Source of the DNA: Dehalococcoidia bacterium
GTDB lineage: Bacteria; Chloroflexota; Dehalococcoidia; Lucifugimonadales; UBA3495
Direction: 5' to 3'
Assembly (NCBI GenBank): GCA_965221385.1
Contig: OZ244885.1
Span: forward strand, 1,088,643 to 1,152,642
Length of the DNA stretch: 64,000 bases
In this document: positions 25,707 through 54,008 of the stretch, one piece after another
Layout of the letters: each line of letters starts with the position of its first letter
How positions within the stretch are numbered: position 1 is the stretch's first letter
The notes under the pieces: model-generated
Database searches by the model: none
What the model saw: only the letters and a program-made list of their open reading frames with translations
What the model was told of the DNA's origin: nothing
Translations under genes and position numbers: made by a program

Positions 25707-25711
25707 GTGGG

Positions 25712-26326: not shown

Positions 26327-26360
26327 GGCTGCCTCCCATCGGGCCGATATACGCCCGAAT

Positions 26361-32968: not shown

Positions 32969-33100
32969 CCGGAAATCCCACAACCTCACAACCGAATAAC
33001 GATGCCCGCCACCATCGGGCGCAACACGGGGCCGCTTCCCATCTATCGGGAGGCGGCCCCGCTCTCGTTTGCCACAAACCCCGTAAGAAGGAGAAGACTC

Positions 33101-34377: not shown

Positions 34378-34785
34378 ATGGACAGGACTCTCAATCCGGC
34401 CAAGCGGCGCAACAAGCGGCGCGGCCAGCGCAACAGCGAGGCGTGGCGGCGGTTCTCCCTGGACGGCGAAACCTGCCGCTTCTGCCCGCATGACGAAACC
34501 CACCACCTGATGTCCTCCGGCCAGCCCCACTTCTACCAACCGGCGACTCAGGACGAGATCGACGACGCTTGCCAGAAGCTGTATCGCCACGACCTGCCCG
34601 ACGGCGGCTCCGTCCTGGTCAAGCGGGTGACCGTCGCCAAGTCCGCCGAGCTGATCACCCTCTTCTGCTCCGCCTGCGCCGAGGCCATGGGAACGGGGCA
34701 GGTCATGTGCTACCACCGCACGTTGGCCGTCGTCGAGGTCGTCGGCGTCAACTGCAACAACCACCAGAAAGGAGACTTGCCATGA
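34378..34785 (+). CDS. Hypothetical Cys/His-containing protein
   Basis: CRFCPHDETHH .. CSAC..; tightly packed between neighbouring genes. Confidence 0.55.
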   Translation: MDRTLNPAKRRNKRRGQRNSEAWRRFSLDGETCRFCPHDETHHLMSSGQPHFYQPATQDEIDDACQKLYRHDLPDGGSVLVKRVTVAKSAELITLFCSACAEAMGTGQVMCYHRTLAVVEVVGVNCNNHQKGDLP

Positions 34786-35816: not shown

Positions 35817-35938
35817 ATCAACCACATCGACGGCTGACAGTCAGCCGCATCACGAGGCCCCGCTCGCTTCCTTCTCTATGGGAGCGGCGGGGCCTCGCTT
35901 TGTTTCAAACCCCAACCCAACGACAAGGAGAATACCCC

Positions 35939-38230
35939 ATGAACCTGGGAGAGTTCATCGACACTTACAGGGACGCCATCGCCAAGCGGGTGGTGGAGTC
36001 GTATCCGCCTCTCTACCAGCCCTCTGACAACGGCCACGCCCTGCCCAAGCTGCTGCGCCAACCCCTGGGCGCCCAGGCCGACGCCATTCGCGGCGCCGCT
36101 CTGTCGCTCCAATCCAACCTGGGAACCACCGTGGTAGGCGAGATGGGCACGGGCAAGACCTTCATCGCCACCGCCGCCGCCTATGCCGCCGGATTCCGGC
36201 GCGTCCTGGTCCTCTGCCCTCCGCACCTGACCCGCAAGTGGAAGCGCGAGGTCGAGGAGACCATCCCCGTTGCCCACGCCGCCATCGTGTCGTCCATCAC
36301 CGACCTGGAACGGCTGCGACGCTACGCCGGAACCGGCCCACTGTTCGCCATCATGTCGAGGGAGCGGGCCAAGCTGTCCTATCGCTGGAAGCCCTCGGTG
36401 GTGGAACGCTGGGCCGTCTCCGGCGGCCGGCTGGTGCGGGACGAAACAACGGGCGAGCCGTTCAGGATTCCCTGCTGTCCCTCCTGCCATGCCCAGTTGG
36501 TGGACCGCGACGGCGTTCCCCTGGCCGACGCCGAGCTGAGCCGCCGCAAGCGCAACTGCTTCCGGTGCAAGAGTCCGCTCTGGCAGGCCGACGGCGCCGG
36601 ACCCCGCCGTTACCCCCTCGCCGACTACGTGAAGAACCGGATGCGTGGCTTCTTCGACCTGCTGGTCGGCGACGAGGTGCACGAGTACAAGGCTCGTGGC
36701 TCGGCGCAGGGCATCGCCGCCGGAGTCCTGGCCGACGCCTGCGGCAAGTCGCTGAGCCTCAGCGGGACTCTGATGGGAGGCTACTCTTCGACCCTGTTCC
36801 ACCTGCTCTACCGGTTCTCCCCGGAGATTCGGTCCGAGTTCGGCCGGTCTGAGGAAGGACGCTGGGTTCAACGCTACGGCTTCTTGGAGCAGACGGTCGG
36901 GCGCGACGACGAAGACCCGGTGGAGGACGGGCGCAACAGCCGGCGCCGCAAGTACCGCAAGGTGGTGCGGGAGCGACCGGGCCTGGCTCCATCCCCCCTC
37001 TTCCACCTCATCGGCAACTCCATCTTCCTGCGCCTCTCCGACGTGGCATCAGGCCTGCCCGACTACTCGGAGCGAATCCTGCTGTCGGGCATGGACTCCG
37101 AGGCGGACACCACCGGCTACTCCCAGCGCGGCGCCTACGACCGGCTGTTCACCGTGCTGCGGGAAGCCCTGGCCGATGCGCTTTCCAAAGGTTCCAAGCG
37201 GCTGCTGGCCGCCTACCTCCAGTCGCTGCTGGCCTACCCCGACGGCTGCACTCGCGGCGAGTCGGTCTTCGACCCCCGGAACGGCGACCTGCTGGTGCAG
37301 GTTCCGCCGCTGTCCGAGGACAAGCTCTACCCCAAGGAGAAGGCCCTGGTTGACCTGGTGGCCGCCGAGCGGATGGCCGGTCGCCGAGTCCTGGTGTACG
37401 TTACTCACACCGGAACCCGTGACATCACCGGCCGCATGGACGAAATCCTGACCCGGCATGGGTTCAAGGTGGCCGTGATGAAGGCCGACGCCGTGGCGCC
37501 GGAGCGACGGGAATCCTGGGTAGCCGACAAGGTCAAGGCGGGCGTCGACGTGCTCATCTGCCATCCCCGGCTGGTGCAGACGGGCCTGGACCTAATCGAC
37601 TTCCCGACGATCTGCTGGTACGAAACCGACTACTCGGTGTACACCATGCGGCAGGCGTCCCGCCGCTCCTGGCGCATAGGGCAGACCCGTCCGGTGCAGG
37701 TGGTCTTCATGGCCTACCGGAACACGCTTCAGGCTGACGCCCTGAAGCTGGTCGCCAAGAAGCTGCAATCCTCGCTGGCGGTGGAGGGCGAACTCCCCGA
37801 AGATGGGCTGGCTGCCTACGGCGATGATGGCGACGACCTGATGCTGGCCCTGGCCCGCAAGATCGTCAACGGCGACGCGGAGGACGAAGCGGAAACCGTC
37901 GAGCAGGTCTTCGCCCAAGCCCGCGACGCCGAGACTGCCGCCGAGGAACTGCTGGTGGACGACCAATGGCAGGCGGTGGAAGCTGCGCCGGGGGCGGTGG
38001 AGGTAATCGACAAGGGAGCGATGAAGCCGGTCGAACCGGCGGTCAACGGCCCTGGCGAACCGGACGTTCCGGAAGACCAGCAGTCCCTGTTCTCCTGGGC
38101 GGAATTCCTGGCAGAAGACCCCTCGCCAGTCAGGAAGCGGGGCCGCAAGCCGGAGCCAGCCGTAGCCTCCCTGTTCCAGTGGGCGCTGGAGCAGGAAAGG
38201 GAGGCCGAGCCGGTGGGAGCCGGCCGGTAG
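35939..38230 (+). CDS. SNF2-family helicase
   Basis: GEMGTGKT, DEVHEYK, and the helicase C block ..CHPRLVQTGLDL..QASRRSWRIGQ. Confidence 0.85.
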   Translation: MNLGEFIDTYRDAIAKRVVESYPPLYQPSDNGHALPKLLRQPLGAQADAIRGAALSLQSNLGTTVVGEMGTGKTFIATAAAYAAGFRRVLVLCPPHLTRKWKREVEETIPVAHAAIVSSITDLERLRRYAGTGPLFAIMSRERAKLSYRWKPSVVERWAVSGGRLVRDETTGEPFRIPCCPSCHAQLVDRDGVPLADAELSRRKRNCFRCKSPLWQADGAGPRRYPLADYVKNRMRGFFDLLVGDEVHEYKARGSAQGIAAGVLADACGKSLSLSGTLMGGYSSTLFHLLYRFSPEIRSEFGRSEEGRWVQRYGFLEQTVGRDDEDPVEDGRNSRRRKYRKVVRERPGLAPSPLFHLIGNSIFLRLSDVASGLPDYSERILLSGMDSEADTTGYSQRGAYDRLFTVLREALADALSKGSKRLLAAYLQSLLAYPDGCTRGESVFDPRNGDLLVQVPPLSEDKLYPKEKALVDLVAAERMAGRRVLVYVTHTGTRDITGRMDEILTRHGFKVAVMKADAVAPERRESWVADKVKAGVDVLICHPRLVQTGLDLIDFPTICWYETDYSVYTMRQASRRSWRIGQTRPVQVVFMAYRNTLQADALKLVAKKLQSSLAVEGELPEDGLAAYGDDGDDLMLALARKIVNGDAEDEAETVEQVFAQARDAETAAEELLVDDQWQAVEAAPGAVEVIDKGAMKPVEPAVNGPGEPDVPEDQQSLFSWAEFLAEDPSPVRKRGRKPEPAVASLFQWALEQEREAEPVGAGR

Positions 38231-38245
38231 CCTGGAACGCCCAAC

Positions 38246-38278
38246 GGGATGCCACCGCACGCGCTGCGGTGGCATCCC
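38246..38278. terminator. Perfect 14-bp stem-loop between convergent genes, followed by a T-run at 38303..38308
   Basis: GGGATGCCACCGCA-cgcgc-TGCGGTGGCATCCC. Confidence 0.5.
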
Positions 38279-38339
38279 ATGTCGGGCCATGTATGGCGGC
38301 TTTTTTGCGTTTTGGGTTCATCGCCACGGGATCAGTCTA

Positions 38340-41300
38340 CTAGACACCTACCGGGACGAATACATCAGGATGGTTTTGTACTTGTTCGGCAAATGGTTTG
38401 TCGTACCGGATGGTTATGACCCGGAATCCAAGGTCTTGCAATTCTGCACGGACCTTGGAGTCCGTCAATTGTTGCCCAGGTTCATCGTGATGTGGACCGT
38501 CCAAGAACACGCAAATGCCGGGGCGTCCCTCGCGTTCGTAGTAGAAGTCGGGCTGCACATGCAAATCCGAAGCAGGGCGGTTTTGAGCGTTGTCTGGCAG
38601 GCGGATGTGTCCCTTGTAGAGGAAATCGAGAAAGTCCATCTCCAACGTAGAATCCGCGAGTCCAGCCAACCACTCGTGCTGTTCTATATAGGTGCGCTTT
38701 CCTAGTTGGCGCACAGTTGTAGACGACGAAAGTAGGTCAAGATAGCTGCGAATGCTGTGGCGGTCCAGATGTCGGTGTTCCAACTGGTTGGAGTAGGAGA
38801 GCAGACACTCGTAGCAAGCGGCAGCGCAGTCCTTGTCCGCAGTTGAATCCTCGGACTGTTCCTCAAAATGGCACAGTTGCAGAGCTTGGAGGGCAACCTT
38901 CGCAATCGCGCCTGGCTCATTTGTCAGTTGCTCCCAAACACCGATGCCACCCTCCGCCGCCTCCCAGAGTAGCAGGCGGCGAAATTCACCCTCGCCTATG
39001 AGCTCAGCTTCAATTTCCTGCTCCTCCACTTGGTAGGCAAACTGGATTGCCCGCTTTAGTGCGTGAAGCAAGGAAATCTGAGAGCTCTCCGACATAATAT
39101 CTCGGAGTGGCTTGAGGAGAAGGATGTTTCTGAAATCTTGCACATACGGCTTGACGCCGGTCAGTGGGCCTACAATTGCAGGATCGCTCTCAGTTTCATC
39201 AGGCTCATCGCGAACTCCCCATCGCCCAGTTTGCCTGTCGATAGTAAATCCAGAGCGCTCACTCCTCCTCCAGCCGTGATTGATTCGCCAAACCCGTGCT
39301 CCGGGCGCGATCACCGCTTCCAAAATTTCCTCGCCATCTTTAGAGCGAACAATTGCACGTTGGGCGCTGGTGCTAGAAAAATTGAAGTGCGTGGTCACGT
39401 CGTAGCCGCTTCGAACGCGCTCCTCTTCTTCTGACGAGATTCTGTCCGTGGCGCGGGCGCGCATCGTTGGCTGGGGGAGTAACCGTTGGGGGAAGCCGGA
39501 CGTCGAACCATCCAGCTTGGTTTCGCAGTGAATGCAAAGCTCAACGTTGACATCTTCCCCGTCGTGAGCGTACCCACAAACATTGCAAAGCTTGGCGCTG
39601 GTAAGCACTCCCTCAATGCCGGCCGGAGGGATCAATGCTTCACGTATCCGGTGCTTGCGTCCCTCGTGGTACACCTGATTGCCCGGCCCAAATTCAGTGA
39701 GGCCCAGAAAGCGGGGGCGGTCAATGATTTGAGCGTTCTGTTCAACGGTTACTGTGGTTCTGACGGGCAGTCTTGGGAAGTTGTACCCAGGAAGAAATCC
39801 CTCGCCGGCAAGGTAGCGATACGGATAGAAGTCAGACTCCTCATACCGGTTTGTTCGATTGAGCAGCAACCCAATCTCGCGTCGGGCCTCCGCCTCCCGC
39901 CTCTCGGCTTCTTCCCGATCCTTCCTACTAGCGTGGGGATCATCAACTACGCGGTGGGCTGCGTCGCGCAAGGCGAGGGTGGAACGGTATAACTCACGCC
40001 AACGATCAAAAGCCCTGTCTAGGGCTTCGGGCGCCGACCTCAACGTATCCTGAATCCAATCATCCGAAAACCACTTTGCCTCCCGGATGTCCTCGGTTCT
40101 CTTGATGATCTGTTGGGCGCGGTCCACGGCTTCAATTATCCGCATCTCGCTGTTCGATCCCCGCAAGGCCTCGGCATTTTCTGGCTGGATGGGGAAATCA
40201 CTTTCATTCAGATCAAGAATTTCGGCCATTCCACTGCCCAAGCGTAGTCCGGTTGTGGCAAGCCAGGTGGAGTACAAGTGGGCTTTGACCAATTCCTGAT
40301 TTTGGAGGTCCATTCGCGCCGGGGTGACTGCGCCGGCAATCATCTCGTTTCGGCGTCCGAAGTAGTATTGGTCATGGGCATTACCGTGTGCAGCGTAGGC
40401 AACGATTAGGGCAGGACGCCCCCCTCGACCAGCACGGCCACTGCGCTGGGCATAGTTGGCGGGAGTGGGCGGGACATTGCGAAGGTGTACTGTGTCCAAG
40501 TCCCGAATGTCCACGCCCAATTCCATCGTTGGTGAACAGAACAGGGCTGATAGTTCGCCTCGCCTGAAATTGTCTTCGCGCGCTAAGCGAGTTTCTGAGA
40601 CGACCTGCCCAGTATGCTCGGCTGCAAGCATTCCACGCAATTGGCGCGCTTGATGCTTGTACAGATGGACGAAGTAGTCGTTTGCCTCACCGGCGCCAGC
40701 TATTTCTCGCTTTAGGTGCAAGGACCGCGACCTTATCGGATCAGGGGGCGCAGGACGGCCGTCGCCGGCGGTCCAAACCATACTTGCTGCCAGTAACCTT
40801 ACCCCTCGGACCTCCCCGCCGCTATCAGATACGGTAGAGAGTAGATGTCCACGTAACGCAGCTACAATGCCGATTACGATGTCTTCAGCCTCTTGCGGGG
40901 AAATGCTTCTCTCCAAATTCCAAGCATGGGCTGAGCGCAGATAGCGCGCTACGTTGGAACGCGCTCCCAATCTAAGCACACCTCGTTGCCTGCCTTCGGT
41001 TCGAGTCGTCTGTACACCCGGCAGCAGCGCGATGCCTTGCGCCCGCAGGCGATCACCGTCATCGAATCGCCACGGGTCCCGTAACCACTGACTTGCCCGG
41101 TCGCGCAGACTTCGGGTCGAACTCTCGCTGAGGGATTCTGCTTCAATAGCAAGATTCATCCTCAGATGGTCGAGGAACGCGCGGATCACCCCAGTTCGCG
41201 TCTCTGGGGTGGCGTCGCCGATAGTAGGTAGTTCCTGCCACAGCGATTCGTCCGCGGTCAGTTTTTCGAGCCCGGCGTATTCGATTCGGAGTAGACCCGT

Positions 41301-43430
41301 CTGCTCCAAGTTAGGTTGCGTGATTCTCCAACCTCGGCTCAAGTCCTCCAAGGTTCTGTAGGCCAGAACGTCAATGATAGTTCGACGCCCAGTGTCATAG
41401 CCAGGGCCGCTTGCTACCGGCTCTTTCAGAAAGTCACCGGGCCGCAGTTGCAACGCATCGAAGACTTCCTGCCCCATCTGGTCGAACGTGAGGTGATGAT
41501 TTCTGCTCAGCGCCTCGACGATACCGGACCTGAGCAATGCCACCTGTACAAAGTCGTTCAGGTGACCGGCTTGCAGGGAGGCATCCTGCCGGTTGTCGGT
41601 AAAGCTGAGGGACTTCGTTTCCTCAGATGGTAGGCCCTGTTCAGCCATGCCCGAAACCGCCGCGTTCACCGCGATGGTAGTTGCTGTGGACCGCCCGGTT
41701 TGACTGAGCGAGGACAGTTTACGAAAGTCGTTCTGACGGGAATCATATACAGCACGACAGCGAAGGCATATTAGGAACGGTCTGGGCTGATACCATCCCG
41801 TCACACTGTTATCGGACCCGTCGTTTAGCCCTCCGCCAGGGGACGCGCTGTACTGGATGGGACGGAAGCGGGCATAGCCTGCCTTGATCGCCAGACCGGA
41901 ACGACGCTCGTTGAACCAGTGCTCCGGCAATTCGGTATCGTCGCCATTCCATAGGTCTTCTTCCTCAAGGGCAAAAAACCCGTCCTCTCCTTCGATGTCC
42001 TCGGTGGCTATTCCCACCATGGGTGAGCGAGGCACGAGGGACTCAAACCCTTCCCGTTCGGTCCGCGCAACCAAGTAATACTCCTGTCCGCACTCACGGC
42101 AGAAGGCCAGGGGGAATAGCAGTCGGTTTCCGTCGGCCCGATACTGGCCGTCCATCCTGAATTCCCTGGAACCAGCGTCCTCCAGGGTTGCGTAGACGCT
42201 GCTGCCTGATGAGAACCACTGGTGCAACCGGAAAGCCAACAATGGCTGACCGTCTTCGCCCTTGGCCTCATTACCGGCCTCCAATATTGCCCGCAACTGC
42301 TCCTCGCACTGTCCTACGGGAAGGCTGGTCTCGTCGGCCAGGCGCTGGGATATTGCGTCGAAGGTTTCCGGTGGACGGCGAACGAGCCTTCCGTCCTCTT
42401 CTTTCAGCCCGAAGGCTTCTTCCGTCCATGCCGTTAGTGGATGCTGGCGGACGGCATCTGCTTCCGGTGTCGGCGCCGGAGCCTCTACTGCCGCTCGCAA
42501 CGACGCGGCATCTGTGGGCGTTGGAACCCCAGCGACGCGCCGTAGCGTTTCGTCCACCACGTTGGCGGCGGGAACGTTCAGCCCGAAGAACTTGGACGCT
42601 AGTCCCGCCGCCGCTTCGTTGCGTTCTTGCCGGGATCCGCCGGTTACGATAGTGGCGCTTGTGGCGATGGCCTGGAGGTCTCTTCCGGCGCTTTCCTGCA
42701 AACGCCGAGTTAACATGGCTACATCGGCGCCCTGCCGTCCCCGATAGAAGTGCAATTCATCCATCACCAACGTTTGAAGGCCTTGAGTGGCGGTGGCAAG
42801 CAGTGGCCGTTCGGCGGGGCGAAGTAGCATGTACTCCGCCATGACATAGTTGGTCAGCAGAATATGTGGCGGGTCTTCCTTTATGCGCTCCCGTTCCTCA
42901 GCACGGTCCTGGCCAGTGTAGCGGTCAAAACGGACGGGAGAATCGGGATAGTTCTCCTCTTGGAAAGCTCGCAACGCATCCAATTGGCTGTTGATCAGGG
43001 CGTTCATCGGGTAGATAAGCAGCGCGCGGACAGAATGAGTCTCCGGAGAATTCCGGATGATGGCATCATAGATGGGCGCCAGGTAGGTGAGGCTCTTGCC
43101 GGAACCGGTCCCGGTGGTGACGACGTAGGATTCGCCCCGCAAACCTATTTCGATGGCCTCTCGCTGGTGGCGGAAGAGACGCAGGCCCTCGCCAAAATAG
43201 CGCGCGGTCTCCGACGCGATTACCCCGTCGGCCGCCAGCTCCCCCATGGTTCGATCCCGCTCAAAGGCTGGATTCAGCTGGAGAACCGCATCAGGCCAGA
43301 GTTCCCCCTCGTCCAGCATTTTTTGGACGTAATTGTCGATTCGCTGGTCCAGAACTTGGACAAAGCTCTTCACGTAGTCCCGGTATTCCGAAACTACCGT
43401 TTCCCTCAGCTTAAAGACATCCAGTGTCAT
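38340..43430 (-). CDS. DEAD/DEAH helicase fused to a DUF1998 (MrfA-type Zn-binding) domain and a C-terminal Vsr/DUF559-like endonuclease fold; DrmA+DrmB-like
   Basis: TTGTGSGKS, VMDELH, SATI; CNVCGY..CIHC and CAAACYECLLSYSNQ; C-terminal PDFYY..ICVFLDGPHHD..R..L..GFRV. ATG at 43430, 8 nt after the MTase stop. Confidence 0.8.
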   Translation of the reverse strand: MTLDVFKLRETVVSEYRDYVKSFVQVLDQRIDNYVQKMLDEGELWPDAVLQLNPAFERDRTMGELAADGVIASETARYFGEGLRLFRHQREAIEIGLRGESYVVTTGTGSGKSLTYLAPIYDAIIRNSPETHSVRALLIYPMNALINSQLDALRAFQEENYPDSPVRFDRYTGQDRAEERERIKEDPPHILLTNYVMAEYMLLRPAERPLLATATQGLQTLVMDELHFYRGRQGADVAMLTRRLQESAGRDLQAIATSATIVTGGSRQERNEAAAGLASKFFGLNVPAANVVDETLRRVAGVPTPTDAASLRAAVEAPAPTPEADAVRQHPLTAWTEEAFGLKEEDGRLVRRPPETFDAISQRLADETSLPVGQCEEQLRAILEAGNEAKGEDGQPLLAFRLHQWFSSGSSVYATLEDAGSREFRMDGQYRADGNRLLFPLAFCRECGQEYYLVARTEREGFESLVPRSPMVGIATEDIEGEDGFFALEEEDLWNGDDTELPEHWFNERRSGLAIKAGYARFRPIQYSASPGGGLNDGSDNSVTGWYQPRPFLICLRCRAVYDSRQNDFRKLSSLSQTGRSTATTIAVNAAVSGMAEQGLPSEETKSLSFTDNRQDASLQAGHLNDFVQVALLRSGIVEALSRNHHLTFDQMGQEVFDALQLRPGDFLKEPVASGPGYDTGRRTIIDVLAYRTLEDLSRGWRITQPNLEQTGLLRIEYAGLEKLTADESLWQELPTIGDATPETRTGVIRAFLDHLRMNLAIEAESLSESSTRSLRDRASQWLRDPWRFDDGDRLRAQGIALLPGVQTTRTEGRQRGVLRLGARSNVARYLRSAHAWNLERSISPQEAEDIVIGIVAALRGHLLSTVSDSGGEVRGVRLLAASMVWTAGDGRPAPPDPIRSRSLHLKREIAGAGEANDYFVHLYKHQARQLRGMLAAEHTGQVVSETRLAREDNFRRGELSALFCSPTMELGVDIRDLDTVHLRNVPPTPANYAQRSGRAGRGGRPALIVAYAAHGNAHDQYYFGRRNEMIAGAVTPARMDLQNQELVKAHLYSTWLATTGLRLGSGMAEILDLNESDFPIQPENAEALRGSNSEMRIIEAVDRAQQIIKRTEDIREAKWFSDDWIQDTLRSAPEALDRAFDRWRELYRSTLALRDAAHRVVDDPHASRKDREEAERREAEARREIGLLLNRTNRYEESDFYPYRYLAGEGFLPGYNFPRLPVRTTVTVEQNAQIIDRPRFLGLTEFGPGNQVYHEGRKHRIREALIPPAGIEGVLTSAKLCNVCGYAHDGEDVNVELCIHCETKLDGSTSGFPQRLLPQPTMRARATDRISSEEEERVRSGYDVTTHFNFSSTSAQRAIVRSKDGEEILEAVIAPGARVWRINHGWRRSERSGFTIDRQTGRWGVRDEPDETESDPAIVGPLTGVKPYVQDFRNILLLKPLRDIMSESSQISLLHALKRAIQFAYQVEEQEIEAELIGEGEFRRLLLWEAAEGGIGVWEQLTNEPGAIAKVALQALQLCHFEEQSEDSTADKDCAAACYECLLSYSNQLEHRHLDRHSIRSYLDLLSSSTTVRQLGKRTYIEQHEWLAGLADSTLEMDFLDFLYKGHIRLPDNAQNRPASDLHVQPDFYYEREGRPGICVFLDGPHHDEPGQQLTDSKVRAELQDLGFRVITIRYDKPFAEQVQNHPDVFVPVGV

Positions 43431-44309
43431 AGCTGCCTCTACTCGGTAAGGTCTGGGGCTTGACCTTGCGCCAGTTGGTCGTAGGCTTTCAGGACGTAGC
43501 GTTGGGTCCGGTACTCGCCGAACTCCCGCATCTCGTTGCGCTTGAGGCCTGGGAAAGATCGGGACGGCTCCGGCGCGTCGAGGATCCACTCCAAGTCGGG
43601 CCGATCCAATTGGTACATGTGGGCGTAGATGGCGTCCAACTCGCACTTCAGCCGGTGGCGCCGCTCCTCATCCCAAGGGAAGGGTGGGCCGTCGTAGCCA
43701 AGGTCCCGGGCGAAGGGTTCCAGGTCGTGGGCTGTGTAGGTCAGTTCCAGCACCCGTGGCACCACCATCTCCACCCAAGCAACGCCGGGCGAACCCTCCT
43801 CCAAGTACACCTCTGGCGGCAGCACCGGCAGCTGCTTCAAGATGAAGAAGTTCAGATTGACGCCCCCGACAGACAACCGAGCAGCCCAATCAAGCGGCAG
43901 ACTGTTCAAGTTTGCCAACACCAAGCATGAAGCGGTTGATTGCCAGTTTTCGTAGGCGAGAACTGGCGCACTATTGCCTACACCGCCGGTTGGCAGGTTT
44001 TCTGTCACCACAGTCCGCTCATTGGTTGCGTTAGTGATGCCCCGGATAGCCTGAAGCCAACTGGATGATTCCAGACGGATCAATGGCGCTTTGTTGCTCA
44101 CGGCGACTCCAGGTATTGCCATGCAGATTGCGGTTCGTTCGTTGGTTGGGCTTGCGATGTCCCTGAATACAATGACCCAACCGAAATGGTAGTGCCAGAA
44201 TCGCTGAGGCCCACGCTTGCTATCATTGCGGAAATTCCCGTTCGCTCGTTGGTCGGGTTGGTGATTTTCCTGAGAGCGAGCTGCGAGCCAATGCCGCGAG
44301 GGTACGTAG

Positions 44310-44417
<108 letters not shown>

Positions 44418-44913
44418 TAGGATGGTATCGCCGGTGTTTTCTGATTTGTCAAGTCTTTCAGCGACCTCTTTTTCCGGGACCCAGTAACGCGGCATGATCA
44501 CGGTGTAAGGGTCAGCCTTTTCCTCGTCGGTCAGCTCGCGGGCGTTGCCGCCCAGCAGGGCTTTCTCGTCCACGCCATCAAAGGTGGCAAAGCGGTGGTC
44601 GTACTGGTGGAACAGCTTGGCCTCATATAGTGGCAGGTAACGTTCCACATCCTCCCCTTCTCCTCGCACGAACACGTTGCTCTGTAGCCCAAATCCGGCC
44701 TCCTCAAAGCTCCCTCCAGGAGCGGAAGATGCTGGAGTCGTTGGACATGTCGAACATTCTCTGGAATCTGACGCCCCAGGGGTTGCTGACTGAGGGAGAG
44801 TCTTTCCTTCTAGCCGGTAGCCCTGAGCTTCCAGTTCTGTCCGAGTTCGAAACAGACCGGATGCGCTTGACATGTGAAACATCGACTGAAACCGTACGCT
44901 CCAAGGATTCCTG

Positions 44914-44922
44914 CCCCCCCCC
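44914..44922 (-). repeat. G9 homopolymer (C9 on the plus strand) within the methyltransferase gene
   Basis: Counted directly; lies at the switch between track ORFs 44704..47916 and 44223..45074. Confidence 0.95.
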
Positions 44923-47879
44923 GGCACCTTGGCTGTCGCGGACGAAAACGCCGGCTCGCTGGTACATTTTGGCGGCGACTTCCATGTCCCGCCGAGTGCG
45001 GAATGTGGGGCTGGTTCGGGTATTGGGGTTGAACAGGGCAAAGTCTTGAGGCGCCAGGTTGTACCTACGGGCATCGTCCTGTAGTTGTTGAGATTGCGTA
45101 AGGTAGAAGGCGAACTCCGCCTGTGGGCTGGGTCGGCCCGTTCCGGTCATGGTGAGCAGGCAGAACTTTATCCTGCTGTCGATACCGGCAAAGACCTTCT
45201 CTCGATTTTCGAAGTCAAAGAGGCTGACCAGGGAGCGGCGGTTCACCAGGTCACCGAAAAATACCTTGGTTGTATCGTCTGTGGCTATCCCTGAAGGCAC
45301 GATGATGCCGGCGCGGCCCGATGGGTGGCAGATTATCCGCGCCGTTTCCGAGAATATGGAGTAGGTATTGACATCGCCGCGTCCGGCCAAAGGAAACCGA
45401 TTGCTGTTGCGAACAAAGCGGCTGACCGACTCTGAATCGTGAACGGCGTCATCAAATGCCTTGGCCAATGCAGGATTGGTGTTGGGCAACCTGTTGATCA
45501 ATCTGCTGCGGGCGGCCTTGTTGGGGGCGTTAGCGATTTCAGGGTCTCGTGTGGCAAAGAACTCCTTCTCCTGGAGCTTGATCCGCTCCCAGGGCGGGTT
45601 GCCCAGCACCACGTCGAAGCCGCCGGCCTCCATTACGTCGGGAAACTCTAGAGGCCAGTGGAAGAATCGTTGCCGTTCCGACGCCCCCATAGCGGCCCCC
45701 ACCAACTTCGCGTTCGCGCTATGGTCCTGTAGGGCATTCCGGACGTTCTGGGTGGTAGGAACCATGTCTACCCCGTCCGAACCTGCCGGCTTAAGCGGAG
45801 CGAAGAAGCCGTAGGTCCACAGGTCGCAGGCCGTCTTGATCTCCCACCATCGGGTGCCCTGCCCACGCAGTTGTTTGTACAGGTCCTCCTTGGCTTTCAC
45901 CTCTGACGGGCTGCGTTCCTCCAACTGGCCGAAGGCTGCGAAGTCCTCGCCCAATTTCGCCGAGGACGATGGAAGTATCTCCAGATTCATGCTCTGCTGT
46001 CCCGTCAACTCCCGCCGGTTGCGATTACGGTAGTCAGTTGCCGCTCTGTTGTCATCGCCGGTAACGGTCCTGTAGGCCCCGTCCGGGATGCCCTCTTCCA
46101 AAACCGTAAAGTCACTGACGCCCACCAGACTATCGCCGCACTTGATGCGATGGTCCAGGAAGCTGAGGGGCAGGCCGGCGGCGTGGCTCTCCAGCCACAA
46201 TGCCACCTTGCACAGGTCCACCGCCAAAGGATTCTTGTCCACGGCATAGATGCAGTTGCGGACCACCTCTCGCAGGGCGGCGCGGTAGTCTGAGGGTGAC
46301 GGCTCGTCCTCACCAGTACGAACCTTCGCCAGCTCCCGTGCGATGCGGCGGGCGGCCGCCAGCAGGAAATGGCCGGAACCCGAAGCTGGATCGCAGACCC
46401 GCAGGCTCAGCAACGCCGCCGCCTTATCCTCCGGCGTAGTGGCCTCATTCAATCGCTCTTCCATCACGGGCGCCAGGGCGCTTTCGACCAGTTCCCGAAC
46501 CAGTTCCGGTGGCGTGTAGTAGGAACCCGTTTCCTTCCGTTCGGTGCCGGCGGCCAGCCTGAAGTGCGCAGGCTCACCAAGGTCATCTCCCAAATCCACA
46601 ACCGGGCGGTAGTCCAGGAGGCTCTCATAAACGGAGCCGAACTCCTCAACGTCCAAATGCGCGTAGTTGACCCGGCGGCGGATGCCCTTGTCACGGAAGG
46701 TAGATAGATGAAGCAGGGTTAGCAGCAGGGACTTGTTGGGGCAGAAAGCCTTCTCGATGTCCTTGCAGGCGCTCGATCCAAACAATTCCCCGTTTAGCGG
46801 AGACATACCCAGGTGGGTCGCGGCTTGTTCATCGCGGAACATGCGGAATGTCTGGGCGAGCCTTTCCCAGAGGTCGCCATGGTTGTCGTCGGCGAAGTTG
46901 CCTTCGGCACGGTCTCGAAGGCTGGAGACGCTGTAGTATCGGTCATATATTGCCTGCGCCTCCAGAGAGGCGCCAGAAGACAACAGCCTGCGCTCCTCGG
47001 TAACCATGAGGAAGAGCATCCGGTACACGAAATTGAGAAGCTGCCTGAAGTACCCTGCTTCTGTGAGCCGGCCGGCGCGGATGGCTTCTCGCAAGGTGTC
47101 GTTGCGAGGATGTCCAACCAATGCCGACCCCAGCTCAGCGAGCGCCAGCTCCACGCCGTGGCGCAAATTCTCCCGCACCCTTCCGCCTTCCTCGATGCCT
47201 TGGGTGTAGTATTGCTCCAACAGGCACTCATGGGGTTCAACGCCGTCGCCAGGAAATCGGCTGGCGTGAAGCAGTCGGTAGAGCACCACGAAATCCCCGT
47301 AGGCATTGCTCTCCAGCATCGAACGGAGATCGAACTCCAAGTAGGTCGGCCTGGACAGGCGAGCGCTATCGCGTAGGAGCCGTAGTTTGGCTCCATTGGA
47401 CACCAGGCCCCAAAGGGTCTCCGAGCGGTTCAGGTAATCCTGAACCAAGGCGTGGGGCGTTCGACGGCTGGCGGTTCCGCGCCGATCCAGGTCCTCTCTG
47501 ATGCCGACGATGTGCAACGGTGGCGCATTCTCGGAGTCATGGATACGGTGAGAAATTGGGAACAACGTACCCCCGACGTCGGCCGAGGCTCTTTGGTATT
47601 CCACATTCGTGAATCCCAACAGCTCCATGAACCCGGTCATCCAGTCTCGCCGGGTTAGCGTCGTTTCGCTCTCCCTGGAATTCTCCAAGCGGGCATCGAA
47701 GGCGACCCAATACTTGCGGGCCGCGTCAAAGGCCTTCCCCGTTTCGTCGGGGAGACGGGAGCCAGGAGGCAGATTGAAGTCCTCAACCGCCTGACCCGCG
47801 ACTCTCCCTTCCTCTGACGCTAGTCGCTCCAGCAAGTCTGGGGGAAACAATCCGCCTTCGATATTGATGGTCGTGTAGC

Positions 47880-50711
47880 TCATGGAGATGCTCCAGCTGG
47901 CGTCAAAACGTAGCACCCAATGATGTCCGGCGGCAGGTGAGGTTCTACCTTAACCTTGGATCCCCTAACGGTTCGCCGCAATCGAGCGTGGGCGCCTTCA
48001 AGGGCCGCAACACGCTCAGCGATAATGCCATTGGCCCAGTCGCCATCCAGCATTCCCAAGGCCCATTCGACGTGCTCGTGACGCTCTGCCTGGGAGATGT
48101 TGGCCACGGGTTCAGCATCGCTGAGAAGCCGGAGGGCTTCATCCTGCAAAGGGGAAAGCCAACGTAACCCATCATCGCCTCGCTGAAATGCAGCCGCGAC
48201 GACTTCCTCGGCGAACTGTTGGCTCTCCGCTTCTATCAGGTATCGCAAACGCAATATAAGCACCGCCGTGCGTCGTTCTACCGCACGGGTGACAATGGCT
48301 CCAGAACGGGAGAAGAGCTGGTCGTTACCTTCAAGGGAACGTGAAAGCACTGATTCTGCCGTGGTTGCGACAATGGGGTGATTGCGCCCCAACAGAGTTA
48401 CTCCCGGCGGGGGTACGCCCTTGAAGGACACCTGCATCGGGAAGGACAACCGCTGGTCTCGCGCAATAATACGGGTCTGCAAATCGCCTGGCGCCAAGGT
48501 GAACACCCCGTCAGTCTTGGTGTCGCGGAGACCTCCGTTGAATCGCTGCACGGCGTTTGCCATGAACCGATACACGTCATCGGCGCTGCCCAACACTGGA
48601 TCCATCTCGGCAAGCTCGCCAGCAACCTCGTCGGGCTGGATTCCGCTTTGGGCGAAATAGGCCCGGGATTTTCCGTCCTTGTCGGCCATTTCCTCCCACG
48701 CCTCATGCAGGCGACTAACTGATGGATCCTCCAGGGCGAGACCGATTTGCTGCCCCTGGCTCGGCCGTCTCAGCAGCACACTGTCCACCAGAGCGTTAAC
48801 TACCTGCTCCGATTCTACAGGCACGGGCACGGAAATGCCGAGGCTTTGGCGGATGGTCTGAGCCTTTCGTAGTAGGACATCAAGGACAACCAAATCGATC
48901 TGGTTGTCCGCTCCGTATAGGAGCACGGTCTTGATTGTGGGCTTGCTCTGGCCAAAGCGATCAACCCTGCCTTCGCGCTGCTCCAGACGATTTGGGTTCC
49001 AGGGAAGATCATAGTGAACCACGGCGTCGTAGTGGTCCTGTAGGTTTACGCCCTCGCTCAGACAATCCGTAGCCACCAGGACTCTCACCGGCTGTTTTGC
49101 CAACTCCAAGACGATTTCCTTGCGTTGCTCGCTGTCGCCTGCATTACCGGTTACTGCCTTGACCGTGAGGCCCCCGTGACTGCTTTCCAATGACTGCTGA
49201 ATGTGCTCTGCTACGTAGTGGGCGGTCTGAATGAAGCGGCAGTACACTATGGGCCTGTATCCCTCGCCCAGAAGTTCGGATACAATCTTGGCGGTTTCTC
49301 GGACTTTGGCGTCCTTGCCAGGTTTGGCCAGGTCATCGGCGCGTTTCAGGAAATCGTCCAATCTCCGAATTTCGCGGGGCCCAAGAGAGCCGCTGTGGTC
49401 GTCCTCGTGGGTCGCTGGAACATAATCGGTGGCCTGTTCCTCATCGACGGAATCCATTAGTTGCTGGCCAAATGAATCGTCAGGCGCGAATCCGTTCTGT
49501 CGTCCGGACGTGGGCGGTTTGCGGTTCTGTAGCGCGGCCCGGGCGGCCCAGGGGCTGGACAAGACACAACGTAGGATCGACAGAGCCGCCCAGTAACGGA
49601 CTCTCTGGCGTTGGTCCTGCACGCCTGAACCGGAAACCTGCTCCCGGCAATAGGACAGTATGTCTTCGTACAGCCTGTGATAATCCGCCGACATCCTATA
49701 GCTCCGTTCGACAGCCTCCCTTTGGGGGAACGGCGTGTCAACTCCCAGCCAGCGTTCCAGGTCAATCCTCCTCCGCTGAATGAAATGAGGCAGCAACTTT
49801 TGGCGGGGAACCTCCGTACCGTCGGGCGGATCGAAGCTGGTATCGATGATACCGAGGAGGGACCTGAAGCTCTCCTCAATTCCGCTATGGGGAGTAGCGG
49901 TGGTAAGGATCAGGTGCCTGTTCGAGTCCTGCGCCAAATCCCGCAGCAGCGCATACCGTTGGTGTTGAGACCCTCCCCGGTCACCCCTCGGTCGTGCGGC
50001 GGTGTGGGCTTCATCCATAACAATAAGGTCTGGCGCATTATCCAAGAATCGCTGACGATTTCGGTCCGATTTTACGAAATCTATGCTTACTACGAGGTGG
50101 CGGTAGTGCTGATAGAGAGACACGTCTCCGCGAGGTAAGGCTCGCTCCAACCTCGCGATTCTGGAAGACTGGACAACAGCCGCTTGGATGTTGAATTTCG
50201 TGCGTAGCTCCTCCTCCCACTGCTCGCAGAGGTGTGGAGCGCACAGAACACCAACCCGACGCACAACTCCTCGGTCCAACAGCTCTCGCGCAATCATCCC
50301 AGCCTCAATGGTTTTCCCGATGCCAACGTCATCCGCGATCAGTAGGCGAACGGGATCGAGGCGAAGCGCCATGATTAGAGGAACAAACTGGTATGGGCGT
50401 GGAACAACGGAAAGCCGCCCCATCGACCGGAAAGGGCCGGCGCCGCTCCTCAGTCCGAGCCGCACCGCATCCCGAAGCAGAAGCGCCCCGGTAAAGTCTC
50501 CAGCCGAATTCGGGTCAGGTTGCTGGTACTCCGAATGCTTTAAGGCCGTCGGTTCCAGGGGCAGATAGACCCCTATGGCATCCTCGTCGGAGCCGTCAAT
50601 GGGTCGCAGTCTGGCCACGTTTGGTTCATCAGGCGGCAAAACCACCCAGTCCCGGCCGCGCGCGCGGACCAACTGCCCTGGCGTCCACTTGCTCTCCTGC
50701 CGTGAAGCCAC
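47880..50711 (-). CDS. drmD: SNF2-family helicase, DrmD-like
   Basis: LIADDVGIGKTIEAG, VMDEAHT, TATPHSG, helicase C ..LATDCLSEGVNLQ..REGRVDRFGQ; ATGA overlap with the MTase start. Confidence 0.8.
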   Translation of the reverse strand: MASRQESKWTPGQLVRARGRDWVVLPPDEPNVARLRPIDGSDEDAIGVYLPLEPTALKHSEYQQPDPNSAGDFTGALLLRDAVRLGLRSGAGPFRSMGRLSVVPRPYQFVPLIMALRLDPVRLLIADDVGIGKTIEAGMIARELLDRGVVRRVGVLCAPHLCEQWEEELRTKFNIQAAVVQSSRIARLERALPRGDVSLYQHYRHLVVSIDFVKSDRNRQRFLDNAPDLIVMDEAHTAARPRGDRGGSQHQRYALLRDLAQDSNRHLILTTATPHSGIEESFRSLLGIIDTSFDPPDGTEVPRQKLLPHFIQRRRIDLERWLGVDTPFPQREAVERSYRMSADYHRLYEDILSYCREQVSGSGVQDQRQRVRYWAALSILRCVLSSPWAARAALQNRKPPTSGRQNGFAPDDSFGQQLMDSVDEEQATDYVPATHEDDHSGSLGPREIRRLDDFLKRADDLAKPGKDAKVRETAKIVSELLGEGYRPIVYCRFIQTAHYVAEHIQQSLESSHGGLTVKAVTGNAGDSEQRKEIVLELAKQPVRVLVATDCLSEGVNLQDHYDAVVHYDLPWNPNRLEQREGRVDRFGQSKPTIKTVLLYGADNQIDLVVLDVLLRKAQTIRQSLGISVPVPVESEQVVNALVDSVLLRRPSQGQQIGLALEDPSVSRLHEAWEEMADKDGKSRAYFAQSGIQPDEVAGELAEMDPVLGSADDVYRFMANAVQRFNGGLRDTKTDGVFTLAPGDLQTRIIARDQRLSFPMQVSFKGVPPPGVTLLGRNHPIVATTAESVLSRSLEGNDQLFSRSGAIVTRAVERRTAVLILRLRYLIEAESQQFAEEVVAAAFQRGDDGLRWLSPLQDEALRLLSDAEPVANISQAERHEHVEWALGMLDGDWANGIIAERVAALEGAHARLRRTVRGSKVKVEPHLPPDIIGCYVLTPAGASP

Positions 50712-50819
50712 GCGATTACCTACCTATTTTCCAAGTCTTTGTGCCATCGTTTGACATCATCAAATTATTACCTTAATATTGCAACACGCTTCACTAACCC
50801 AGCGACGGAACCTGCCGTG

Positions 50820-51656
50820 ATGACCACCGACACCAAGCCCAAGCAAACATTGGTAGGGATCGAACTCATCCGATTGCTTACCTCCGAGGGCGACCGTATC
50901 TTCACCATCGAACGGGCTCGCGAGTTGGCGCCCCGTGTCGGGCTGAGAGATTCCTATCTTCGGGAGGCATTGTACCACCTTCGCCAGAACGGATGGATAG
51001 TCTCCCTACGACGGGGACTGTATGCCCTTTGCCCGACGATTCCAGGCGTGCCGGCTGCGCACGAGTACGAAATCGCCACGTTTCTGGTGACGCCTGCAGC
51101 CATCTCCCATTGGTCAGCCTTGAGCTATCACGGCCTCACCGAGCAGCCGCCTAGGACTGTCTTCGTATCGACCACCACGCAGGCTTCCGTTCCCCGGTCC
51201 AGGCGAAACGATGCGGACCGCCTTGACCAGGGCTATGAAGTCCTGGGTACAGCATACCAATTCATTCAACTCAAGCCGGAACGCTACTTTGGGGCTGAAA
51301 AGGTTTGGCTCAACGACGCCCGGGTGAGGATTACCGACCTGGAACGCACACTGCTGGACGCGCTATCCATGCCCCAACACTGCGGCGGATTTGCCGAGGC
51401 CCTCCACGCCTTTCGTTCAGTGACGGACAGGTTGGACATCGACCGGATCGTGGGTTATGCCCTCCAGCTCGATGGAGCTACCGCCAAGCGTCTCGGCTGG
51501 GTTTTGGAGCAAGACGGGATAGATTCACCGCAACTGGATGTCCTCGCCGACTTCCCAGTCAGGGGATACACGCGGCTCGACCCAACCGGGCCCAGAAAAG
51601 GGAAGTGCGGCGGGCGGTGGATGATTCAGGAGAACCTGCCCGGAATGCTTGCATGA
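50820..51656 (+). CDS. abiEi: AbiEi-family antitoxin/transcriptional regulator
   Basis: ..LRRGLYAL.. ISHWSALSYHGLTEQ .. DLERTLLDAL pattern. Confidence 0.75.
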   Translation: MTTDTKPKQTLVGIELIRLLTSEGDRIFTIERARELAPRVGLRDSYLREALYHLRQNGWIVSLRRGLYALCPTIPGVPAAHEYEIATFLVTPAAISHWSALSYHGLTEQPPRTVFVSTTTQASVPRSRRNDADRLDQGYEVLGTAYQFIQLKPERYFGAEKVWLNDARVRITDLERTLLDALSMPQHCGGFAEALHAFRSVTDRLDIDRIVGYALQLDGATAKRLGWVLEQDGIDSPQLDVLADFPVRGYTRLDPTGPRKGKCGGRWMIQENLPGMLA

Positions 51657-52531
51657 TGAGACCACTACACACCCGTCTTCAAGAAGCCCGCCAACGCCTG
51701 GGCCTACCATGGGAAGTCCTGGAGCGTGACTACCTGCTGTCGTGGGTCTTGGCAGGGATAGCGCGAACGCCGGCCCTCCGCGACTCTCTGGCATTCAAAG
51801 GCGGCACGGCCCTCAAGAAGTGCTACTTCAGGGACTATCGCTTTTCCGAAGATTTGGACTTCACGGGACTGGACAGCGCCCCTACTGGGGAGGCGATGGA
51901 AGGGGCCATGAAAGAAGCCATCGAGAGTGCGTTGGAGTTGCTAGAGGAATATGCCCCCATCGTTCTGGAATGCCAAAGGTACTCGGAGCGGGAGCCGCAC
52001 CCAGGCGGTCAAGAGGCTTTCGTCATACGCGCTCAGATGCCGTGGCAGAACCAGCCCCAGACCCGAATCATGGTGGAGGTAACGCTTGACGAGAAGGTTT
52101 TCTGGCCGATGGAAAGACGGCAAGTCGTCCACGAATACGGCGAGCCTCTGGAGGCTGAGGTCCTGATCTACTCGCTGGAAGAGGTGGTGGCCGAGAAGCT
52201 GCGGGCAATCCTCCAGCACGCGGATACACTGGAACGGCGGGGCTGGAGCCGTTCCAGGGCACGGGACTACTACGACCTTTGGCGTGTGTTGGGAACTCAC
52301 CGACAACGGTTGGATCTGACCGAGTTCGACGCCAATCTGCGGGACAAATGCGCTCTCAGGAATGTGGCATTCACCGGGCCGGCTGATTTTTTCGCTCCTC
52401 GAATGATGGGCTATGTCCGCGAAACGTGGCGACAGTCGTTAGGCCCACTGGTCCCAAACCTGCCTGCCTTCGATGCGGTTATTGAAGACCTACGCCCGCA
52501 AGTTTCGGGACTCATGGCGGGCGACGACTAG
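51653..52531 (+). CDS. abiEii: AbiEii/AbiGii-family nucleotidyltransferase toxin
   Basis: LAFKGGTALKKCYFRDYRFSEDLDFT; ATGA overlap with abiEi. Confidence 0.8.
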   Translation: MMRPLHTRLQEARQRLGLPWEVLERDYLLSWVLAGIARTPALRDSLAFKGGTALKKCYFRDYRFSEDLDFTGLDSAPTGEAMEGAMKEAIESALELLEEYAPIVLECQRYSEREPHPGGQEAFVIRAQMPWQNQPQTRIMVEVTLDEKVFWPMERRQVVHEYGEPLEAEVLIYSLEEVVAEKLRAILQHADTLERRGWSRSRARDYYDLWRVLGTHRQRLDLTEFDANLRDKCALRNVAFTGPADFFAPRMMGYVRETWRQSLGPLVPNLPAFDAVIEDLRPQVSGLMAGDD

Positions 52532-52775
52532 GGGCAAATCGGAGGCCGCTACCCCTAGGTTGACCGTCCGGTGGCACCGATGGGTTGCGTCCCACCAATG
52601 GCAGGTGGTTGAAAGTGGTGGAAACGGGATGCAGCAGGAATCCGGACTGCCCCACAGGTGGTGCGGGGATGCTGACTGCGCTGGACGCGCCCGATTGCTG
52701 CCTCACGTCAATCCGCTTCCAACCCCGCTACCCAGGAATACCGCAGCTTTTGGTGGTGATTGACTGACCAATAAC

Positions 52776-54002: not shown

Positions 54003-54008
54003 CGGCCC
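53933..54008 (-). tRNA. tRNA-Lys(UUU): tRNA-Lys (anticodon UUU), encoded CCA
   Basis: Hand-folded cloverleaf: acceptor GGGCCGU/ACGGCCC, D arm GCUC/GAGC, anticodon stem CCGGA/UCCGG with loop CUUUUAA, T arm GUGGG-UUCGACC-CCCAC. Confidence 0.9.

Follow-up and report, generated by a model that had tools for sequence, protein, structure and literature searches.

A 64-kb stretch of the genome of a Dehalococcoidia bacterium (contig OZ244885.1; hereafter the window, to which all coordinates refer) carries at 38340–50711, on its minus strand, an operon of three co-directional genes. This operon is probably an ARMADA type I defence system in which the adenine methylase gene, armB, is a phase-variable contingency gene, and not the class-1 DISARM system that a first-pass annotation of the sequence had proposed. 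The filing under ARMADA type I is made because of the profile scores of the proteins, their solved relatives, the fusion of a DUF1998 module to the large helicase, the gene trio itself and the presence of homologous trios in genome records already listed as type I. The helicase genes armA and armC are intact while armB is spread over three reading frames, in keeping with that annotation. The only two simple-sequence tracts in the window, a G9 run and a perfect (AGCC)27 repeat, both lie inside armB.

Gene content and system assignment of the operon

The start codon of armB at 47883 overlaps the armA stop codon (47880–47882) as ATGA, and the armB stop codon, TAG at 43439–43441, is followed by 8 nt (AGGCAGCT) and then by the armC ATG at 43430 (Table 1). 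The order of SNF2 helicase, NPPW/Eco57I methylase and DEAD/DUF1998 helicase, the ATGA overlap (47880–47883) and the 8-nt gap (43431–43438) had been read from the sequence in the first pass, and were confirmed by the open reading frames (ORFs), the Pfam matches and the sequence itself. Pfam identified Helicase_C, ResIII, DEAD and SNF2-rel domains in ArmA, and Eco57I (5.9e-19) and N6_Mtase in ArmB, where a GNPPW motif is present. In ArmC, the DEAD, Helicase_C and MZB domains all fall within one ORF of 1696 codons. The ArmA protein was found to be identical, by exact look-up, on an independent metagenome contig, L001 (related loci and homologous proteins are cited here by L and P numbers). The C-terminus of ArmC contains a motif, ..PDF..CVFLDGPHHD..VITIRYD, that was read by eye as Vsr/DUF559-like, and a sequence search with the C-terminal 150 residues against solved structures gave no meaningful match.

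As had also been noted in the first pass, there is no separate gene for DrmB or for a PLD-type DrmC; neither the ORF list nor Pfam revealed such a gene in or beside the operon. An armD gene is likewise missing after armC, where there are a hairpin (38247–38279) and a convergent gene. A minus-strand ORF of 232 residues at 37592–38290 was considered as a fourth gene and rejected as spurious, as it overlaps the convergent plus-strand helicase gene at 35900–38230 and has no family match.

ARMADA was defined by a trio consisting of ArmA, a BrxHII/RapA-like helicase, ArmB, a PglX-like NPPW methylase, and ArmC, a YprA helicase that resembles the one of Druantia and is fused to a DUF1998 module and, at its C-terminus, to a Vsr nuclease (2025 preprint, PMC12458937). 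Type I is without the fourth gene, ArmD (a GajB-like helicase fused to RelE), which marks type II, and the armA-armB-armC (reversed) order has been reported for ARMADA type I of cyanobacteria and archaea (PMC12458937). The proteins of the window resemble this trio. With PADLOC, ArmC matched DruE3 (1e-96) and DruE1 (5e-84), versus only 2e-13 for DrmA, and its solved relatives are the 2000-residue DEAD/DEAH helicases 9tu7 and 9wae (the best chain being 9tu7_Y, a helicase of 2108 residues, at 4e-43) and MrfA/YprA (6znp). ArmA matched the PADLOC models for DpdE (3e-186), DrmD (2e-92) and BrxHI/II (3e-67 and 5e-56), with the DpdE model outscoring every DrmD model, and its best solved relative is RapA (5e-22). 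The PADLOC match of ArmB was DrmMI (4e-80). A full-length ArmB homologue had no match in a sequence search against solved structures; for the model of homologue P0085, which represents full-length ArmB, Foldseek ranked BrxX/PglX best, with ~10% identity in the structural alignment.

Comparison with the E. coli proteins by BLASTP gave 26% identity over 535 residues for ArmA and 26–32% for ArmB. ArmC matched E. coli DruE and E. coli ArmC with similar scores (124 and 117 bits; 25–36% identity). The neighbours of armC in the operon are the methylase and SNF2 genes, and no BLASTP match to E. coli DruH was obtained from the SNF2 protein, methylase or helicase of the window; the partner expected of Druantia type III was not found. 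The type II proteins of E. coli Sakai (L082) are 25–36% identical to the window proteins. In that locus (SpLE6, 5357499–5390000) RefSeq names the ARMADA genes only “ATP-dependent helicase”, “hypothetical protein”, “RNA helicase” and “DNA helicase”.

Relatives of the methylase numbered 310 when one genome per species was scanned, and the best 80 loci were examined for gene linkage. Homologues of armA, armB and armC were linked in approximately 60 of these 80, from Chloroflexota, cyanobacteria, Actinomycetota, Nitrospirota and deltaproteobacteria. Four loci of Actinomycetota and deltaproteobacteria (L041, L054–L056) have the canonical type I order of YprA, SNF2 and methylase. All three homologues are present, at 38–47% identity, in L067 (AP018280.1) and L073 (AP018248.1), two records that are entered as “ARMADA Type I helicase” in Table S1 of Bell et al. 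2025 and were matched here at record level (PMC12458937). Many cyanobacterial loci (e.g., L037, L045, L053, L067, L080) have 1–6 kb of extra DNA between armB and armC.

We consider it very unlikely that the operon is instead a class-1 DISARM variant, composed of DrmD, DrmMI and a fused DrmA-DrmB protein, that has lost DrmC. There are reasons to have thought so. The PADLOC models for DrmD and DrmMI were matched (2e-92 and 4e-80), DISARM_DrmD is the best named NCBIfam match for the SNF2 protein, and ARMADA was itself defined as DISARM-related, with two genes in common with class-1 DISARM (PMC12458937). However, the DISARM_DrmD match reached 347.6 bits against a cut-off of 610, no protein of the operon matched the NCBIfam models for DrmA or DrmB, and the large helicase scored 2e-13 with DrmA versus 1e-96 with DruE. 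Separate DrmA and DrmB genes are a hallmark of DISARM (PMC12458937), whereas DUF1998 is fused to the helicase here. In addition, the same protein ends in a fused nuclease-like motif in the place of a PLD gene, and the homologous loci occur in records listed as ARMADA type I. Of the DISARM proposal, the DISARM-related trio stands. The profile searches that had been suggested as a check on it, run here with PADLOC and Pfam, point to DruE and not DrmA for the large helicase.

Reading frames and repeat tracts of armB

Three-frame translation resolved armB into segments at 47883–44704, ~44925–44223 and ~44308–43439. The N-terminal 987 residues are in one frame, the middle piece is in the +1 frame and the C-terminal 289 residues are in the third. 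Full-length ArmB homologues have 1400–1480 residues, and the C-terminal segment of the window gene is 55–76% identical to their C-termini. The first frame break falls between the G9 run at 44914–44922 (switch site 1) and a TGA at 44704, and the repeat further downstream (switch site 2) was reported by Tandem Repeats Finder (TRF) as 27.0 copies over 108 nt with 100% matches and a score of 216. None of the frame segments contains an unexpected stop between the switch sites and its expected end. We considered whether the TGA at 44704 reflects a private 1-nt insertion and rejected this, as homologue P0017, which is 65% identical to the first ArmB segment, has the near-identical ending “...SSIFRTWREL”.

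Frame arithmetic at the two sites assigns a product to each tract length. With G9, the present state, reading passes through module A2 to the TGA at 44704 and gives 1059 residues. With G8 or G11 it would pass through module A1 and onward to the repeat, where (with site 1 in the continuing state) 27 units would give the short tail, 28 units the T1-terminated product and 26 or 29 units the full-length protein of ~1479 residues. By this arithmetic, the armB of the window is predicted to be two slippage steps from its full-length phase. The first pass had called the methylase OFF. The gene is indeed out of frame now, but its relatives show that it is not a plain OFF gene; they have a conserved, hypermutable switch with multiple states.

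No second copy of this lineage that spans the repeat was found, L001 ending 1.4 kb into armB, and a search of Joint Genome Institute (JGI) metagenome contigs with 28 nt from beside the AGCC tract gave nothing. An exact look-up of P0017 also gave no match, and a megablast of the 12.4-kb block against plasmids returned a single match of 80 nt.

Similar tracts are concentrated in the armB genes of relatives. In 20 related genome loci there were 18 tracts in 87 kb of armB versus one in 323 kb of flanks, the single flank tract being a C17 run in armA of L020. The closest clade consists of metagenome-assembled genomes (MAGs) of Dehalococcoidia and other Chloroflexota, some of which are named as sponge associates, and in it a site 2 repeat was found in 14 related loci, ~3.3 kb into armB. 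The units of these repeats are AGAC/CAGA (15–30 copies), GACC, GACAC (36 copies), GACAG, AG, two 7-mers and three 8-mers, so that their lengths are 2, 4, 5, 7 or 8 nt and never a multiple of 3. Further repeat units are visible as repeated peptides in homologue proteins, and none of those is a multiple of 3 either. At site 1 (~nt 2960–2985), homopolymers occur in L002 (G12), L033 (C17), L052 (C10), and L083 and L084 (G8 in both). The short-read scaffold L084 has the same two-site layout. An independent scan of JGI metagenome contigs found tetranucleotide repeats at site 1 (GCAG x7 in L094; AGGC x10 and x17 in L095) and dinucleotide repeats at site 2 (L086, L090). Tracts are absent from more distant homologues, those of cyanobacteria and other phyla, whose gene is shorter.

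The state of the frame also varies. Four of the 15 repeat-bearing representative loci can be read through to the usual C-terminus (L007, L010 with 30 units, L016, and L081 with 18 units) and 11 stop in an alternative frame. Members of protein clusters formed at 90% identity differ in tract length, with all three C-termini represented. In one such cluster the length of poly-proline varies from 2 to 5 residues, and in another there are between one and three DRQT units. The homopolymer differences could in part represent long-read errors; the tetranucleotide cases and L084 cannot. Extra homopolymers were noted elsewhere in the operon (the C17 run at 8036 of L020 in armA; C14 at nt 1873 of armB in L009; C11 at nt 1581 of armB in L011), and switching may extend beyond the two main sites, including to the SNF2 gene. 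The short-read MAG contig L005 breaks off in a 51-G run (3673–3723) at the very position of switch site 2, and many further examples may be hidden where contigs end at such tracts.

These observations bear on two other explanations of the frame breaks. One is that the breaks are assembly or sequencing errors and that the gene is truly intact. Long-read metagenome assemblies are prone to errors in the lengths of homopolymers and repeats, and the protein clusters include many odd-length fragments. Errors cannot, however, create a perfect 108-nt repeat or module copies, even if the unit count and the G9 are uncertain. The layout recurs in independent assemblies, including the short-read L084 and JGI contigs, the ending of the current product recurs nearly unchanged in P0017, and the switch architecture would stand even if the true phase were ON. 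We therefore regard this explanation as highly improbable. The other is that a single DNA sequence gives rise to all the isoforms at once, through slippage in transcription or frameshifting by the ribosome, with no heritable phase variation. Homopolymer runs of at least 9 are known substrates for RNA polymerase slippage, and modules in all three frames would suit simultaneous products. Against this, the tract lengths differ in the DNA of near-identical genes, and long repeats of 4- to 8-nt units are classic substrates for DNA slippage and are not known frameshift signals. Co-production as the whole explanation thus seems quite unlikely to us, although transcriptional slippage could act on the homopolymers alongside DNA slippage.

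Module copies in the alternative frames

Comparison of armB homologues with and without repeats revealed that the frames beyond each switch site contain related modules. Non-repeat homologues have an RYWV motif, ~20 residues, a single T module (W.L.FRDI...TNERT...IP..G.G...) and the C-terminal domain, whereas the repeat clade has three T modules. T2 and T3 share the frame of the C-terminal domain, and T1 occupies another, in the window and in eight further loci. Each T module has a frame to itself in L008, L009, L011 and L083. The lengths of the post-repeat frames are similar across loci, at ~289–297 residues (full), 63–76 residues (T1-terminated) and 23–30 residues. The T1 tail has 69–70 residues in seven loci, including the window, and 63–66 residues in two more. 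Short tails of the form “..LAELARSSLSG..” were found in approximately 25 of 120 homologue clusters. The helical C-terminal domain has a predicted local distance difference test (pLDDT) score near 90 in the P0085 model.

Site 1 has a corresponding arrangement of A modules, with the pattern NPWG..F..MF.M..DS..F. A1 terminates in L002, L083, L084, P0006 and P0010 at a conserved “..(V/L)RET.GE” followed by a stop, and A2 is the copy that continues. In the window and P0017 the roles are exchanged, with A2 ending at “..WREL” and stop and A1 continuing. In L033 and L052, three A modules come after a poly-C run, one in each frame.

Read in its own frame, T1 shows coding-type substitutions. Pairwise differences between T1 copies at codon positions 1, 2 and 3 were 0.45, 0.31 and 0.60, and the same measure gave 0.43, 0.27 and 0.56 for T2 and 0.41, 0.28 and 0.65 for T3. 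We considered gene conversion from T2 or T3 as the source of this coding appearance and rejected it, as T1 copies from different loci are 45% identical to one another versus 31–33% to T2 and T3 of their own locus. In the P0085 model, residues 881–935, where the full-length frame crosses T1, are disordered, with a pLDDT of 24–31. That disorder fits T1's own frame being the constrained one. Given the coding signature of T1, the alternative frames resemble truncated isoforms under selection and not products of decay, and together with the conserved stops this signature argues that at least one truncated form is functional.

That armB is instead a decaying pseudogene in a disused defence island, with repeats that expanded neutrally, is unlikely. 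The window copy needs two frame corrections, extra lesions are present in L002, L004 and L015, and a neighbouring recombinase is without its catalytic domain, all of which speak for decay. Yet the repeats are found at the same two positions in many lineages, with differing units of which none is a multiple of 3, and alleles with 18 and 30 units are fully open. The frame segments of the window are without unexpected stops, the alternative frames end at conserved positions, the T1 substitution pattern indicates purifying selection, and armA and armC are intact.

Several observations nevertheless weigh against an ARMADA type I operon with a phase-variable armB. The window proteins are just 25–36% identical to those of E. 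coli type II, the ones tested by experiment, and the Vsr nuclease of ArmC rests on a weak Pfam DUF559 match (E = 0.033) and the by-eye motif. The G9 phase may be a miscall, as many of the related contigs are apparently long-read assemblies in which homopolymers are error-prone, and tract polymorphism was seen in relatives only and not in the window's own gene. Of the three loci with extra lesions, L002 has a stop in the continuing frame, L004 is without the C-terminus and armC, and L015 has a further frameshift. The structural models are similarly equivocal: an AlphaFold model of the T1-terminated isoform P0008 has strands at the T1 positions with a pLDDT of only 35–44, and the full-length P0085 model shows only T2 and the last strand of T3.

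The module copies raise a more specific idea, which we put forward tentatively: that armB is a frame-indexed isoform switch, with a module copy for each frame, whose three or four selected, folded products set the modes of ARMADA. Such modes might include full defence, an off state, and either methylation alone or a standby complex, a scheme that we find conceivable without yet calling it likely. It is likewise possible, at the same tentative level, that the overprinted three-frame design arose at both sites, with some lineages having a module in all three frames.

Two further forms of variation were noted in ArmB. In the otherwise near-identical proteins P0002, P0008/P0012 and P0009/P0016, the ~100 residues after NPPW occur in three unrelated versions (NPPWERIKLQEKEFF.., NPPWDQVQLDPREFF.. 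and NPPWDQVQPEEVSFF..; the equivalent in the window is ~45590–45300), which looks like cassette exchange in a possible specificity region. L021, P0099, P0111 and P0117 are 68–71% identical over the first 770 residues and have a wholly different C-terminal part that contains a TaqI_C-type specificity domain. The presence of such C-termini in close relatives implies that the C-terminal third of ArmB has been swapped between lineages.

For an ARMADA type I operon with a phase-variable armB, we propose the following mechanism. Slipped-strand mispairing at replication would alter the tract lengths and with them the armB reading frame. The rate would rise with the number of units, as is established for AGCC and AGTC repeats in mod genes, and populations would hold a mixture of armB phases. 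Each phase would yield a defined product: 1059 residues (ending after A2), short-tailed, T1-terminated or full-length at ~1479 residues. Truncated states would then most likely turn defence off, or down to a reduced mode, in a fraction of the cells; this would be reversible and would cause no self-restriction. An early stop 0.7–1.3 kb upstream of armC may also lower armC expression through lost translational coupling. Experimental evidence for phage protection by ARMADA comes from type II alone (PMC12458937). In E. coli ARMADA II, deletion of any gene or mutation of the ArmB NPPW motif abolishes protection, and toxicity was not reported. By analogy, loss of ArmB most likely switches the system off, because ArmB is required for E. 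coli ARMADA II protection. The autoimmunity question that the first pass had attached to a broken modification gene beside intact helicase genes is therefore probably moot.

Genomic setting and comparison with known systems

The operon belongs to a large integrated mobile region with type IV secretion genes and lies at the end marked by tRNA-Lys (Table 1).

Table 1. Positions of the operon, the parts of armB and the surrounding genes in the window.
Feature	Position	Strand	Basis or remark
Conjugative-element genes	11617–38230		Pfam; GC 0.65–0.68
Complete serine recombinase	11617–13233		Pfam
Relaxase-like gene	15789–17432		Pfam
Coupling protein	17429–20089		Pfam
VirB4/TraC	20140–22335		Pfam
TrbL/VirB6	24699–26339		Pfam
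RadC	33002–33628		Pfam
DUF6094/N6_Mtase methylase, then 776-residue helicase-like protein	34569–38230	+	Pfam; convergent with operon
armC, YprA/DruE-like helicase with fused MZB (formerly DUF1998) module	38340–43430	-	1696 residues, intact ORF
armB, PglX-like NPPW adenine methylase	43439–47883	-	Three frames; ~1479 residues when repaired to full length
armB C-terminal segment	43439–44308	-	Third frame; T2 ~44066–44188, T3 ~43946–44068, helical C-terminal domain
T1-frame alternative C-terminus	44098–44309	-	69 residues; module T1 (..GSQLALRKITNPTNERTGISAMIASVGLSDSGTTISVGS..) then stop; three-frame translation
Short tail	44223–44309	-	28 residues; LRTLAALARSSLSGKSPTRPTSEREFPQ then stop; frame upstream of repeat
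Switch site 2, perfect (AGCC)27 on coding strand	44310–44417	-	GGCT on plus strand; ~nt 3470 of gene; TRF
Module A2, diverged second copy of A1	44704–44784	-	N-terminal frame, ends TGA
armB segment 1, product now encoded	44704–47883	-	1059 residues; identical to database protein P0001
Module A1 (NPWSVRFQSMFHMSSASGLFRTRTELEAQGYRLEGK)	44805–44909	-	+1 frame relative to N-terminal part
Switch site 1, G9 run on coding strand	44914–44922	-	~nt 2960 of gene
armA, SNF2/RapA-like (BrxHII-like) helicase	47880–50711	-	943 residues, intact ORF
abiEi/abiEii toxin-antitoxin pair	50739–52531	+	Pfam AbiEi_1, AbiEii; divergent from armA; also on L001
Serine-recombinase gene	52776–54002	+	Pfam Recombinase and Zn_ribbon_recom, no catalytic Resolvase domain
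tRNA-Lys	53933–54008	-	Overlapped by 3' end of recombinase gene

L001 is 99.4% identical to the window at 46468–53958 and unrelated past that point, which lies inside the tRNA gene. This divergence marks an element boundary, the right-hand end of the mobile block, and from the sequence the attachment site seems to be within the end of the recombinase gene. Beyond tRNA-Lys there are ordinary-looking chromosomal genes. The left boundary of the island would be marked by a direct repeat of the tRNA-Lys end, but a search for one revealed no convincing candidate. The GC content at 38–50 kb is 0.56–0.61 versus 0.65–0.68 in the conjugation genes at 15–37 kb, which bears out the lower GC of the block described in the first pass. 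The proposal made there that the operon is cargo of the conjugative element is plausible, in that the operon adjoins the type IV secretion genes. An older tRNA-linked island beside the element is a possible alternative.

Other genes and repeats of the region were also noted. A Rad52-like gene is among the element genes on the armC side of the operon (Pfam), and the methylase and helicase genes at 34569–38230 form a second, intact methylase-helicase pair on the element. A plus-strand gene at 3149–4939 encodes a Schlafen group 3-like DNA/RNA helicase (Pfam SLFN-g3_helicase, 6.9e-70). It is in a sharp low-GC pocket, 0.51–0.56 versus 0.65 around it, and may be defence-type cargo. Two pairs of 40–42-nt direct repeats with 56-nt spacing (10116–10211 and 26592–26689) are in intergenic-looking DNA of the conjugative region and may be operator or iteron-like sites.

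ARMADA, described in 2025, and phase-variable methylases as a kind are already known. What is new is the two-site, three-frame layout with overprinted module copies, in a helicase-nuclease system of uncultured environmental bacteria; a frame-indexed isoform design is not known from any defence system. The separation of self from non-self and the role of the methylase are open questions for ARMADA, which was named only in 2025. Natural nested truncations of ArmB, ending after module A, the RYWV motif or module T1 or running to full length, are ready-made constructs that could tell which part of the protein serves methylation, which serves defence and which keeps ArmC harmless. A clade of methylases built as switches would show that ARMADA is run as bet-hedging in free-living and symbiotic Chloroflexota, repeat-driven phase variation having so far been studied mostly in host-adapted pathogens. 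Restriction-like cargo that can be switched off could also ease the transfer of a mobile element into unmethylated hosts. Homologous modules in all three frames behind a slippery tract are an unusual form of overlapping coding, and gene callers and defence-system finders could be misled into calling such loci broken or incomplete.

The operon agrees with ARMADA as defined in its three components, the reversed order, the lack of ArmD and the location in an integrated element by a tRNA gene; the Chloroflexota clade differs in having two hypermutable armB tracts and frame-staggered module copies (PMC12458937). The full text of the defining paper makes no mention of phase variation or frameshifts (PMC12458937). 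In a full-text literature search, the term “phase-variable” did not occur in the other ARMADA papers found, and no paper dealing with repeat-driven switching in Chloroflexota methylases came up. Class-1 DISARM has in common with the operon a homologous SNF2 helicase and adenine methylase, as well as a helicase and a DUF1998 module. It differs in that the latter two are one DruE/ARMADA-type protein in the window, which has no PLD nuclease and a DrmD match below the cut-off. BREX provides the closest solved fold for ArmB, that of PglX/BrxX, a methylase needed for both modification and defence as ArmB is for ARMADA II defence, but the identity in the structural alignment is ~10% and the BREX partner genes brxB, brxC and pglZ are absent here.

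The switch itself is closest to those of phase-variable restriction-modification methylases, which include the type III mod “phasevarions” of Haemophilus and Neisseria (AGCC or AGTC repeats), the poly-G type IIG genes of Campylobacter and Helicobacter, and Streptomyces pglX with its G tract. In these genes, as in armB, a tract within the methylase ORF sets the frame, and the AGCC unit is the same as in mod genes. Homopolymer slippage in type I HsdS (e.g., NgoAV) yields a shorter functional subunit with altered properties. ArmB shares slippage truncation with NgoAV-type HsdS but is of another protein family, and a function of its truncated forms is suggested here by conserved stops and codon patterns. 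We know of no frame-staggered duplicate modules in phase-variable HsdS. Unlike the phase-variable restriction-modification methylases, armB has two tracts, both in the 3' third of the gene, and its hosts are uncultured environmental or sponge-associated Chloroflexota and not host-adapted pathogens. Furthermore, its product belongs to a helicase-nuclease defence system, and separate copies of the next module, closed by conserved stops, are present in its other frames.

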